From the NCBI RefSeq assembly GCF_003334335.1, contig NZ_QOWQ01000016.1: a stretch of DNA of 64,000 nucleotides, one strand, 5' to 3'. Both the position numbers and the translations under genes were made by a program. The DNA is from Escherichia coli. GTDB lineage: Bacteria > Pseudomonadota > Gammaproteobacteria > Enterobacterales > Enterobacteriaceae. Positions 1 through 3,409 of the stretch are shown piece by piece. The number at the start of each line of letters is the position of its first letter. Position 1 is the first letter of the stretch. Under the pieces are notes generated by a model. That model did not search any database. It saw only the letters and a list, made by a program, of their open reading frames with translations, and was not told the DNA's origin.

Positions 1-189
1 CCGTGGCGTTACTACAACGATCGCGATGTACGCACAATCGTTGAGCTGGGGAAAGCCATAGACTTCGATGCCAGAACGGCTATTCCATTCGAAGGTGAGC
101 GCCATAATGCACTTGATGACGCCCGTTACCAGGCAAAATACGTTTCAGCTATCTGGCAAAAACTGATCCCAAATCAGGCTGATTTTTAA
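1..189 (+). CDS. DnaQ/DEDDh-like 3'-5' exonuclease, C-terminal fragment (5' end outside window)
   Basis: Frame 1 is open from base 1 to TAA at 187-189; translation ends ...ERHNALDDARYQAKYVSAIWQKLIPNQADF, containing an Exo III-like H-x-A-x-x-D motif. Confidence 0.45.
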   Translation, partial: PWRYYNDRDVRTIVELGKAIDFDARTAIPFEGERHNALDDARYQAKYVSAIWQKLIPNQADF

Positions 190-253
190 TGTTCAACCCC
201 GGTCGTTGCCCACCAGCTATAGTGGCGGCGACCATGATTAGCGAACGACGCTC

Positions 254-502
254 ATGGCAAGACTTATTCTGCTCACTGAGTGGGCAAAAGAGGAATTCAG
301 TGAACCGGTCCCTACTCCGAGTACGTTAAGTAAATACGCTAAAGCCGGAATGATATTTCCTCTCCCCAAAAAAGTTGGAAGACGCTGGCGAGTGGATCCG
401 CAAGCTCGCTTTGTCGGAATGGTAAACAAGCCGGAGGTGATCGCCACAGATCACCCTGCTTTGAAGAGGATACTGGAAGATGGCGCGCCCGCGAAAATAT
501 AA
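254..502 (+). CDS. Excisionase-like protein (Xis family)
   Basis: 82-aa ORF immediately upstream of int, overlapping its start by 23 nt as in lambda xis-int; sequence pattern resembles lambda Xis. Exact start uncertain. Confidence 0.5.
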   Translation: MARLILLTEWAKEEFSEPVPTPSTLSKYAKAGMIFPLPKKVGRRWRVDPQARFVGMVNKPEVIATDHPALKRILEDGAPAKI

Positions 503-1610
503 AACCGATGTTCCGGGATTATCTCCGTATTTTGACAAAAGAAATAACAAAGTTTACTGGCGTTACAGGCATCCCATAACAGGCAAAAATCACGGTCTCG
601 GCAGTATTGACCAGAAACTGGCAGAAACTATTGCAGCAGAAGCGAACAGCCGTCTTGCCCGGCAGCAAATGGAACAAATGCTCAGTCTGCAGGAGAAAAT
701 TATTAGTGATACCGGTGGTTCATCAACCGTTACCATTTTTCTGAATAATTACAGAAAAATTCAACAGGAAAGATATGAAAACGGCGAGATCAAACTCAAC
801 ACGCTGAAACAGAAAGCGGCCCCTCTCAGGGTATTTGATGAACGTTTTGGCACCAGACCGTTAGATGCCATAACCGTAAAAGATGTGGTATCAGTACTGG
901 AAGAGTACAAGGCCAGAGGACATAACAGAATGGGACAAATTTTCAGGAAGGTACTGATCGATGTTTTCCGGGAAGCTCAGCAAACGGGCGATGTCCCGCC
1001 AGGCTTTAACCCTGCAGAATCGGCAAAAAAACCGCAGGTGCGGATATCAAGACAGCGACTGACTTTTGATGAGTGGATGATGATTTATAACGCAGCGGAA
1101 AAGGATGGTTACTTTTTACAGCGCGGTATGCTGCTGGCACTGATGACAGGCCAGCGCCTTTCAGATATTTGCAAAATGCAATTTTCGGATATCCGGGATG
1201 GTTATCTTCATGTCGAACAGCAAAAAACAGGAACCCGGATTGCCATCCCTCTGGCTCTGCGTTGCGATAAATTAAATCTCACCCTGGATGATGTGGTGTC
1301 ATCCTGCCGCGATTGCGTTCTTAGTCCGTGGCTATTGCACCACCATCACGCGAAAGGGACAGCTAAGCGCGGCGGGATGGTTAAGCCAGCAACATTAACC
1401 GTTGCATTTAAAAAAGCCCGGGATTCTGTGGATTACAACTGGCGTGCTAATGGCACCCCACCCTCTTTCCATGAGCAGAGATCTTTATCAGAGCGATTGT
1501 TCAGAGAGCAGGGGGTTGATACCAAAATTTTGCTAGGCCATTCGAATCAAAAAATGACCGATATTTACAACGATGTACGCGGTAAGGAGTGGAAAAAACT
1601 GGTCATTTGA
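480..1610 (+). CDS. Lambda-family tyrosine integrase
   Basis: 376 aa; clear similarity to lambda Int, e.g. GQRLSDICKMQFSDIRDGYLHVEQQKTGTRIAIP and C-terminal PPSFHEQRSLSERL...LLGHSNQKMTDIYNDVRGKEWKKL with the catalytic Tyr context. Confidence 0.9.
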   Translation: MARPRKYKTDVPGLSPYFDKRNNKVYWRYRHPITGKNHGLGSIDQKLAETIAAEANSRLARQQMEQMLSLQEKIISDTGGSSTVTIFLNNYRKIQQERYENGEIKLNTLKQKAAPLRVFDERFGTRPLDAITVKDVVSVLEEYKARGHNRMGQIFRKVLIDVFREAQQTGDVPPGFNPAESAKKPQVRISRQRLTFDEWMMIYNAAEKDGYFLQRGMLLALMTGQRLSDICKMQFSDIRDGYLHVEQQKTGTRIAIPLALRCDKLNLTLDDVVSSCRDCVLSPWLLHHHHAKGTAKRGGMVKPATLTVAFKKARDSVDYNWRANGTPPSFHEQRSLSERLFREQGVDTKILLGHSNQKMTDIYNDVRGKEWKKLVI

Positions 1611-1616
1611 TGACCA

Positions 1617-1650
1617 GTTTTGCAGAAGAGTTTTGCAGAGGTTTTGCAGA
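1617..1650 (+). repeat. Three direct copies of GTTTTGCAGA (1617-1626, 1630-1639, 1641-1650) between int stop and ompW stop; candidate Int arm-type sites
   Basis: Repeats read directly in the sequence; their function as arm-type sites is inference from their position next to int. Confidence 0.4.
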
Positions 1651-1655
1651 GAAAA

Positions 1656-2309
1656 TTAAAAACGATATCCTGCCGAGAACATAAACACCCACGGGTCAAG
1701 GCGTACATTGTCGCTATAACTGCCTTTAGCCAGTTTACGACCATCAGATTTATACTTCGCGGTGGTATCGATATCCATGTACCACACTGACATGTTAACC
1801 AACCAGTCACGGTTAATCAGATAATCAACCCCCACCTGCCCGGCAGCTCCCCAGGAATCTTTCAGACTGAGATCGGAAAGCCCTGCCTCTTTGCCATGAT
1901 CGTTAAATCCATTATCAAAGAAGGTGGTGTAGTTAATACCTGCCCCAACGTAAGGACGGAATTTGCTGCTGGCATCACCAAAATACCACTGCGCCATCAG
2001 TGTTGGTGGCAGATGATGAACGGTTGCAATATCGCCGGTCGCCCGGGTGCCGATTTTATGGCGGAACGGCGTCGCTGCCAGTAATTCCACACCAATGTTG
2101 TCGGTCGCCATATAAGTAAACGTAAGGCCCAGTTGCGTGTTATTGGTCACGCTGAATCCACCCAGACTTCCTAACGTACCACCAGCACCTTCTGTTGGAC
2201 GTACGGTTGCAGAACCTGCACGCATAAAAAATTCGCCTGCTTCATGCGCAAAGGCACTGCCAGAGAGAAGAGTTGTTACTGCCAAAGCCGCCACTGTTAA
2301 CTTTTTCAT
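1656..2309 (-). CDS. ompW: Outer membrane protein W
   Basis: 217 aa starting MKKLTVAALAVTTLLSGSAFA (signal peptide) and ending RLDPWVFMFSAGYRF; residues 185-201 differ from the K-12 allele as recalled. Confidence 0.9.
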   Translation of the reverse strand: MKKLTVAALAVTTLLSGSAFAHEAGEFFMRAGSATVRPTEGAGGTLGSLGGFSVTNNTQLGLTFTYMATDNIGVELLAATPFRHKIGTRATGDIATVHHLPPTLMAQWYFGDASSKFRPYVGAGINYTTFFDNGFNDHGKEAGLSDLSLKDSWGAAGQVGVDYLINRDWLVNMSVWYMDIDTTAKYKSDGRKLAKGSYSDNVRLDPWVFMFSAGYRF

Positions 2310-2458
2310 ATCCGCTCCGTCGTTATGGTTATAAAAACGTGACGAATATACCTACATTGGAGTAACAAATGATCCTACATAGATCACATTACATATGATA
2401 ATTCACCCTTTATTGATCTGGATTAATTTAGAAGTTGCATTGAGAATCCTGGTTAATG

Positions 2459-2472
2459 TGATTTAAATCAAT
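2459..2472. promoter_or_regulatory. FNR-box-like site (GTGATttaaATCAA) upstream of ompW
   Basis: One mismatch to TTGAT-N4-ATCAA; ompW is known to be anaerobically regulated. A second weaker match lies at 2413-2426. Confidence 0.3.
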
Positions 2473-2665
2473 TTTTAAATATTTTCGCTACGCAAATATT
2501 AACTCGGTCGCCACTTGCCGCGATTTGCCCATGCCTGAAGGCCAGCAATTACCTCCGCTTTACAAAGATATGCTTTTCCATACAAGACCTGATGCTGCCA
2601 CCCGAGGCTTAACCAGGGTACAATTGCCCGCTAATTAACACCTGCATAAAACTCAAGGAGAGTGC

Positions 2666-3409
2666 ATGTCTATCACGGCGCAGTCCGTATACCGTGACAC
2701 CGGAAATTTCTTCCGTAATCAATTTATGACCATTCTGTTGGTATCGTTGCTATGTGCGTTTATCACAGTGGTGTTAGGGCATGTTTTCTCACCCAGTGAT
2801 GCACAGCTTGCGCAGCTCAATGACGGCGTGCCCGTTAGCGGCAGTAGTGGGTTGTTCGACCTGGTTCAGAATATGTCACCGGAACAGCAACAAATTTTGC
2901 TGCAGGCTTCAGCGGCGTCCACTTTTTCAGGATTAATCGGTAACGCCATTCTCGCCGGAGGCGTAATATTAATTATCCAGCTGGTGTCTGCGGGTCAGAG
3001 AGTCAGTGCGCTGCGAGCTATTGGTGCCAGTGCGCCGATATTGCCAAAGTTATTTATTCTGATTTTTCTGACTACCCTTTTAGTACAGATTGGCATCATG
3101 CTGGTGGTCGTTCCGGGAATTATCATGGCCATTTTACTGGCCCTGGCACCGGTGATGTTGGTACAGGACAAAATGGGCGTTTTTGCCTCGATGCGTAGCA
3201 GTATGCGGCTGACTTGGGCGAATATGCGTCTGGTGGCACCCGCAGTACTGAGCTGGTTGCTGGCAAAAACACTGTTGCTGCTTTTTGCCTCTTCTTTTGC
3301 CGCATTAACCCCGGAAATTGGTGCCGTACTGGCGAACACCTTGAGCAACCTGATTTCAGCCATATTGCTCATCTATCTGTTCCGCCTGTATATGTTGATT
3401 CGCCAATAA
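2666..3409 (+). CDS. yciC: UPF0259 inner membrane protein YciC
   Basis: 247 aa, hydrophobic; N-terminus [16 protein letters not shown] matches YciC; conserved position next to yciB. Confidence 0.9.

Follow-up and report, generated by a model that had tools for sequence, protein, structure and literature searches.

What is the role of three identical 10-bp repeats packed between a prophage integrase gene and a host outer-membrane protein gene? This question is raised by a 64,000-nucleotide stretch of the Escherichia coli genome (RefSeq assembly GCF_003334335.1, contig NZ_QOWQ01000016.1; hereafter, the window), in which the integrase gene int converges on ompW and the repeats lie between the two stop codons. 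A sequence-only reading of this spacer had proposed the repeats as candidate arm-type binding sites for the integrase (Int) or as the P′ arm of an attL attachment site. After analyzing the window, its counterparts in other genomes and the related phages, we consider it very probable that the three GTTTTGCAGA copies are arm-type sites of the P′ arm to which the prophage Int binds through its N-terminal domain, with a fourth copy in the P arm; this assignment is based on sequence comparison and on analogy with lambda-family phages. The triple repeat is thus a genuine but ordinary feature, a hitherto undescribed example of the arm-type sites of lambda, phage 21 and e14.

The three direct repeats were located at exactly the positions that had been given for them (Table 1), and their spacing from start to start is 13 and 11 bp. 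The int stop codon TGA occupies 1608-1610 and the ompW stop codon TAA occupies 1656-1658 on the minus strand, leaving a spacer of 45 bp (1611-1655) rather than the 46 bp first counted. When both strands of the window were searched, only these three exact copies of GTTTTGCAGA were found, all within 1617-1650, and this is the sole spot in the window at which a 10-mer occurs three times, without overlap, inside 40 bp. A comparable triple cluster arose in none of 60 first-order Markov simulations of 64 kb each.

Arm-type sites are expected in phage-derived DNA at a distance from the core, and the repeats were found in such a place. The window prophage shares its integration site with the PPompW prophages of Shiga toxin-producing and enteropathogenic E. 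coli (STEC/EPEC), for which Nakamura et al. 2021 (PMC8112680; LC567818-LC567841) described an imperfect duplication of 121 bp as attL/attR, and the int genes are 97.8% identical in DNA and 99.7% in protein. The host genes ompW, yciC, yciB, yciA and tonB flank the prophage. Phage-free strains align with the window only from ~1654 onward, at ~92% identity and with a 15-bp length difference. In the alignments, attP-type junctions part from the chromosome immediately beyond 1789, differences between the phage and host types of ompW extend to ~1758, and the 28-bp block GTGGTATCGATATCCATGTACCACACTG is identical in attP, attL, attR and attB. Judging from these comparisons, the crossover (core) must lie in 1762-1789, inside ompW, and the whole spacer therefore consists of phage DNA, belonging to the int-proximal (P′) arm of attL. 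The alignments place the host junction ~140 bp past the spacer, within the same interval, and identify positions 1-1789 of the window as the int-proximal end (attL) of a lambdoid PPompW-type prophage. The repeats sit on the phage side, 112-172 bp from the core block, and phage-free strains lack them. The native ompW 3′ end persists as a pseudogene at attR (28864-28989 of locus L017, introduced below). Calling the interval an int-ompW spacer is misleading, since the final ~105-135 bp of ompW are themselves phage-borne. The sequence-only reading had also allowed that the repeat might belong to a conserved host ompW terminator. This candidate was ruled out: the motif is not found 3′ of ompW in phage-free strains, and phage-free TOP10/K-12 carries GACCCCGTATATTACGGGGTCGTTTTT there, with neither TTTTGCAG nor the hairpin of the window.

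The same 10-mer was then sought at the other prophage end, as had been suggested, and was found both at the attR of an identical strain and in an intact attP. Strain 300709 (locus L017, NZ_CP025903.1), which is identical to the window, has exactly four perfect GTTTTGCAGA copies in 50 kb covering the ~29-kb prophage. The fourth lies in the P arm of attR (L017 28742-28751), on the same strand and 120 bp from the core block. The intact attP of phage 204576 (L005) has the same layout, with its P-arm copy at 3394-3403, and a 9/10 copy, GTTTTGCAGG, stands at the P-arm position in both PPompW_132418 and the LSU61 junction. On a given strand, an exact 10-mer would be expected by chance in a P arm of ~300 bp at a frequency of only ~3e-4 (300/4^10).

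The integrase itself is of the kind that would use such sites. The arm-DNA-binding domain expected of a cognate integrase for lambda-family arm-type sites is present in the window Int (PF09003, Arm-DNA-bind_1, residues 2-71, E 1.6e-21), together with PF22022 and PF00589, and the lambda Int structures 5j0n and 1z1b align to its whole length at E 1e-55. Its closest characterized relatives are phage 21 Int and e14 IntE, at ~50% identity over the full length; lambda Int is 36% identical. Lambda Int attaches to arm-type sites with high affinity through its N-domain and contacts the core with its C-terminal domains, and the two kinds of site are joined with the help of bending proteins (PMC4880445). 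Read in the int sense, the lambda sites P′3, P′2 and P′1 are arranged in tandem from the int stop codon, on the strand opposite to int (positions 85-115; the stop ends at 88), while P1 has a P′-like orientation ~137 bp from the core center and P2 is inverted and closer. Both lambda and PPompW combine a heterobivalent Int carrying PF09003 with three tandem P′ sites that adjoin the int stop codon or overlap it. The PPompW P-arm copy is oriented like P1 and lies ~139 bp from the center of the identity block. If the lambda consensus is set against TCTGCAAAAC, the complement of the repeat, the PPompW sites read opposite to int as those of lambda do, and CAAAA is common to TCTGCAAAAC and lambda P′2 (CAGTCAAAAT). 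The consensus sequences are nonetheless not alike (C/AAGTCACTAT in lambda), and the integrases share only the 36% identity given above.

Further parallels come from closer relatives of the integrase. The sequence-only reading had pointed to homologous phages, and these carry equivalent triple repeats at the same place. The phage 21 record (OL657228.1) annotates the repeats after the int stop codon as 'attP 3 subsites P1P2P3' with the consensus YYTTCCCCAAAA; three copies of GTTTTGGGGAA follow int directly, reading GTTTTGGGGAAGG, GTTTTGGGGAAA and GTTTTGGGGAAGA in the int sense, and are succeeded by a terminator and the surrogate icd 3′ end, and an additional ATTTTGGGGAAAG lies in the P arm ~120 bp past the core. 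The outermost repeats of phage 21 (L007) span 397 bp. Phage 21 reportedly needs a 366-418-bp attP that reaches its outermost repeated dodecamers, a range with which the measured 397 bp agrees; its oversized attP is said to have been ascribed to the embedded gene fragment, and the specificity of 21 and e14 is said to depend on the arm-site consensus. In K-12, e14 has three copies of TTTTGATAA adjoining the icd terminator and GTTTTGATAACC ~128 bp into the P arm, and Klebsiella phage Kp4865-4 carries the e14-type motif three times after int and once ~120 bp from the far end. Phage 813R8, which uses the potC site and whose record is partial and covers the P′ side only, without the far prophage end, has GTTTTGGGGAAAC, GTTTTGGAGAGA and TTTTGGAGAAAGG, that is, three copies of TTTTGGRGA. 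In a survey of 80 viral-contig loci, 8 kept sequence past the int stop codon, most of the others being trimmed exactly there. L087, L090 and L094, whose integrases are 53-54% identical to that of the window and which use a different host locus, have three copies of GTTTTGCAG (GTTTTGCAGAA, GTTTTGCAGGG and GTTTTGCAGAAG) with the 13/11 spacing kept, and L092, with a 21-like Int, has three TTTTGGGGA-type repeats.

Among the repeat-bearing relatives examined, three tandem copies follow the int stop codon at a spacing of 13/11-12 bp, and wherever the far end was available, one copy lies ~120 bp into the P arm. Phage 21 and e14 share with PPompW the order of int stop codon, three TTTTG-headed tandem repeats, surrogate 3′ end, core in the gene and P-arm repeat, the last in the same orientation. 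The target gene differs, being icd for phage 21 (and for e14, its sibling cryptic prophage of K-12) and ompW for PPompW, as does the surrogate gene end, which is ~121-136 bp in PPompW and annotated as ~165 bp in phage 21 (L007 2451-2615). The motif consists of a constant TTTTG head and a variable tail (GCAGA in PPompW, GGGGAA in phage 21, ATAA in e14), which is the same in both arms of an element and differs between elements. Moreover, the tail groups with the sequence of the Int N-domain: '(I/V)PGLS' occurs with GCAG (PPompW and the L087 type), 'PNLYPL.SRKVN' with GATAA (e14 and Kp4865-4), and 'D(K/R)RTG..Q' with GGGGAA or GGRGA (21, L092 and 813R8). Set side by side in this way, arm motif and N-domain provide a small but usable resource on integrase specificity.

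These comparisons bear directly on the idea that the repeats are functionless slippage duplications and that the far-end copy is a coincidence or a remnant. Copy number does vary, as slippage would have it: strain MS 21-1 (L011, NZ_CP146670.1, ~905-960) has four tandem GTTTTGCAGA units, with one added 11-bp unit, and P′ arm-site copy number is polymorphic among PPompW junctions. Against this stand the small chance of an exact P-arm copy, the failure of the simulations to yield such a cluster and the recurrence of the 3+1 pattern, its spacing and its distance where the integrases are only 44-54% identical and the motifs differ. We therefore regard slippage as extremely improbable, and the comparative data effectively refute it.

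Another competing reading holds that the repeats are accessory att sites that bind Xis or a host bending protein, not the Int N-domain. Lambda Xis also binds tandem direct repeats (X1, X1.5 and X2; PMC4880445), an xis gene is present at the window prophage end, and variation of the motif between elements would be expected for any phage-specific protein. However, the Xis sites of lambda lie only in the P arm beside the core, not in P′ near int (PMC4880445), whereas the window has its triple in P′ and a single P copy at the distance and in the orientation of lambda P1. In the record of phage 21, the corresponding repeats are given as subsites of attP; the motif goes with the sequence of the Int N-domain; and a host factor would need no motif change from phage to phage. 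We judge binding by Xis or a host factor to be very unlikely, and the far-end copy, the phage-free comparison and the triple repeats beside homologous integrases all favor the proposal of Int arm-type sites in the attL P′ arm.

Several observations weigh against the arm-site assignment. Within 300 bp of P arm, no further arm copy was found at ≤2 mismatches, and at 3 mismatches the matches are no more frequent than background; where lambda has two P-arm sites, PPompW shows one, with no equivalent of the excision-specific, inverted P2 detected at ≤2 mismatches. The second P-arm site is a lambda-specific trait and not a class-defining one; phage 21 and e14 likewise show one clear copy. The P′ copies of PPompW lie ~130-155 bp from the core, compared with 50-80 bp in lambda; this long P′ arm is explained by the embedded ompW gene fragment, but the bending sites that would be needed inside the ompW-derived segment are hypothetical, and no IHF consensus match with ≤1 mismatch was found in that segment. 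The repeats are nearly invariant among close PPompW variants, with point changes that spare TTTTGCAG, but these variants are too alike to reveal whether purifying selection acts more on the repeats than on the flanking sequence. Finally, the PPompW paper defines the duplicated att sequence only and mentions arm-type sites 0 times (PMC8112680).

Taking these points together with the evidence above, we still favor arm-type sites and suggest a putative mechanism by analogy with lambda and phage 21. Each Int protomer would hold an arm-type site by its N-domain and a core-type site within 1762-1789 by its C-terminal domains. Bending proteins would fold the ~130-155-bp arms back onto the core, and we infer that Int bound to the copies in this manner would bridge arm and core in both integrative and excisive intasomes, with the copies serving in integration and excision.

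The spacer contains a second element, which is separate from the direct repeats. The sequence-only reading had noted an inverted repeat, GGTCAT-ttg-ATGACC, across the int stop codon; this inverted repeat exists but was under-called in size, its perfect arms being 12 bp long (Table 1). Its 3′ arm covers the first five bases of repeat 1, and it lies 35-61 nt beyond the ompW stop codon. The same reading had considered a terminator less likely for want of a U-run, which holds for the direct repeats and is wrong for the hairpin: A6 at 1594-1599 means that the ompW-sense RNA reads AUGACCAG and then UUUUUU. Both strands were folded as RNA after a simple consensus terminator scan had made no call. The folding energy is -14.4 kcal/mol on the minus strand (ompW sense) and -14.9 kcal/mol on the plus strand (int sense), z is about -5 (-5.5 in the ompW sense), and 0 of 200 shuffles were equally stable. 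The hairpin is unchanged in 8 PPompW junctions.

We lean, by a modest degree, toward the hairpin being a phage-supplied intrinsic terminator of the hybrid ompW, possibly bidirectional and stronger in the ompW sense. We read it in this way because the native ompW hairpin of phage-free strains (GC-rich, GACCCCGTATATTACGGGGTC) is missing from the window, because the terminator scan found no other terminator-like structure downstream of the hybrid ompW, and because the relatives (phage 21, e14, Kp4865-4 and L087/L090/L094) have a canonical terminator after the surrogate host-gene end. The hairpin may also end int transcription. Some features speak against termination here: only 4 of the 12 stem pairs are G-C, the int-sense strand has just 4 U after the stem, and the scan made no call, because its T-run rule counts from the end of the maximal stem. 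The placement also differs from that in the relatives. Phage 21 and e14 have their terminator between the repeats and the surrogate end of the gene. The PPompW hairpin is found on the other side of the repeats, toward int, and extends across the int stop codon; therefore, the arm sites of PPompW would be transcribed as part of the 3′ untranslated region (3′ UTR) of the host gene, unlike those of phage 21 and e14.

This placement gives some substance to the view that the spacer is an RNA-level element, either a phage-supplied ompW 3′ UTR with its terminator or a 3′ UTR-derived small RNA (sRNA), in which the repeats would act in RNA, for example in Hfq or sRNA binding. The PPompW repeats stand between the ompW stop codon and the sole terminator-like hairpin and hence must be transcribed with ompW, and a hairpin with a U6 tail is typical of the 3′ end of an Hfq-dependent RNA. 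However, in phage 21, e14, Kp4865-4 and L087/L090/L094 the terminator precedes the repeats, which are thus outside the host-gene transcript and yet conserved, and one more copy lies in the P arm, which is AT-rich and remote from transcripts of this kind. The direct repeats alone form no significant structure on the ompW-sense RNA, and an Rfam family search of window positions 1-3000 at E ≤ 1 gave no match. We consider an RNA-level role for the repeats highly improbable and retain their assignment as Int arm-type sites. The prophage sRNA svsR/C0293 was also considered as an explanation and dropped, its paper not concerning the int-att interval.

Because the arm sites sit in a transcribed 3′ UTR between the ompW stop codon and a modest hairpin, unlike those of the relatives, one further idea may be voiced as a speculation that we think unlikely to hold. 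Transcription of ompW might run across, or even through, the Int docking sites and into antisense int, so that the level of ompW expression would bear on intasome assembly or on int expression and, through these, on prophage stability; conversely, bound Int might roadblock ompW transcription. It is a separate and equally doubtful thought that the pairing of TTTTG head, variable tail and N-domain constitutes a specificity code.

Table 1. Features at the int-ompW end of the prophage, with positions in the window.
Feature	Position	Strand	Remarks
xis (excisionase)	254..502	+	Open reading frame (ORF) overlapping the int start; named excisionase in the identical RefSeq locus
int, lambda-family heterobivalent tyrosine integrase, 376 aa	480..1610	+	N-terminal arm-DNA-binding domain, residues 2-71
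Perfect 12-bp inverted repeat with 3-nt loop	1595..1621		Spans the int stop codon; arms 1595-1606 AAAACTGGTCAT and 1610-1621 ATGACCAGTTTT, 100% complementary
Putative arm-type site, copy 1	1617..1626	+	GTTTTGCAGA; complement TCTGCAAAAC; int-proximal, lambda P′3 position
Putative arm-type site, copy 2	1630..1639	+	GTTTTGCAGA; lambda P′2 position
Putative arm-type site, copy 3	1641..1650	+	GTTTTGCAGA; core-proximal, lambda P′1 position
Hybrid ompW, 217 aa	1656..2309	-	Host 5′ part and phage 3′ part
Phage-borne surrogate ompW 3′ end	1656..1761	-	Part of the P′ arm; diverges from the native gene; 15-bp insertion in the window strain
28-bp identity block	1762..1789		GTGGTATCGATATCCATGTACCACACTG; identical in attP, attL, attR and attB; phage DNA ends at 1789

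Of 5426 complete E. coli genomes, 1715 contain the int-spacer-ompW junction. For this very widespread prophage family, the present analysis adds to what is described of the att-site anatomy. Members of the PPompW family carry type III effector genes and provide a landing pad for Shiga toxin (Stx) phages, and their excision and circularization have been demonstrated by polymerase chain reaction (PMC8112680). If the arm sites are correctly assigned, the full functional attP would be ~300 bp long, with the three P′ sites at one end and the P-arm site at the other, and would not be confined to the 121-bp duplication. Knowledge of this extent should help in predicting which prophage remnants can still excise and in designing integration vectors for the ompW site. 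The extent of the phage DNA is clarified as well, the repeats, the hairpin and the last part of ompW all being phage-derived.

The window prophage differs from typical PPompW members in being degraded to ~29 kb and in the 15-bp insertion in its surrogate ompW end. In the corresponding region of L017 (NZ_CP025903.1 1526000-1555000), left of the window, the ~29-kb prophage has a defective appearance, lacking most head and tail genes and having a 4.2-kb 'terminase' ORF that leads straight into genes for tail-fibre assembly. Nonetheless, int, xis, the four arm sites and both att ends are intact.

The hybrid ompW gene encodes an altered protein. Between two conserved stretches, the C-terminal segment of OmpW reads NYKLGGAQQHDSVRL in K-12, KYKSGVTTVKDSVRL in O157 lysogens and KYKSDGRKLAKGSYSDNVRL in the window, and the window protein is 5 aa longer (217 aa vs 212). 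From the OmpW fold, we take the rewritten segment to be probably the last surface loop. If it is, lysogeny would alter an exposed part of an outer-membrane protein, which could amount to receptor alteration or antigenic conversion.

Some further observations concern the P arm and the junctions. In the reconstructed attP, AATCAGACAGTTA (L017 ~28775-28790), which agrees with the IHF consensus at 12/13 positions, is situated next to the P-arm copy, ~20 bp toward the core; 12/13 matches in the P arm are not above chance. Two PPompW P arms that have diverged elsewhere both retain the element GATTTTRTTGAA, and phage 21 has a similar sequence, GATTTCATTGA, at the corresponding place. This element may be bound by a bending protein or by Xis, and is statistically indistinguishable from chance. 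The O157:H7 strain LSU61 (L003) had been considered as a case of a secondary insertion site, which was dropped, its 'flank' being a PPompW-type P arm with GTTTTGCAGG at the expected place. In L003 and in the viral contigs L026 and L051, a PPompW-type P arm directly follows int, the repeats and an ompW fragment, in place of the rest of ompW. These attP-like junctions within larger records suggest tandem or nested PPompW prophages, in agreement with the prophage-in-prophage theme of the PPompW paper (PMC8112680). A short inverted repeat across the int stop codon (GTTATC-7 nt-GATAAC) is likewise seen in L087, a distant relative, and is not conserved in L090, which is close to L087.

Elsewhere in the window, at 58350-58379, the 10-mer CTGCTGATAG forms a perfect tandem triplet ~90 bp upstream of an 876-aa ORF (58471-61101, plus strand). 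The sequence just 5′ of the ATG of this ORF reads like coding sequence, and the triplet may be a frame-disrupting repeat in a pseudogenized or phase-variable surface-protein gene.

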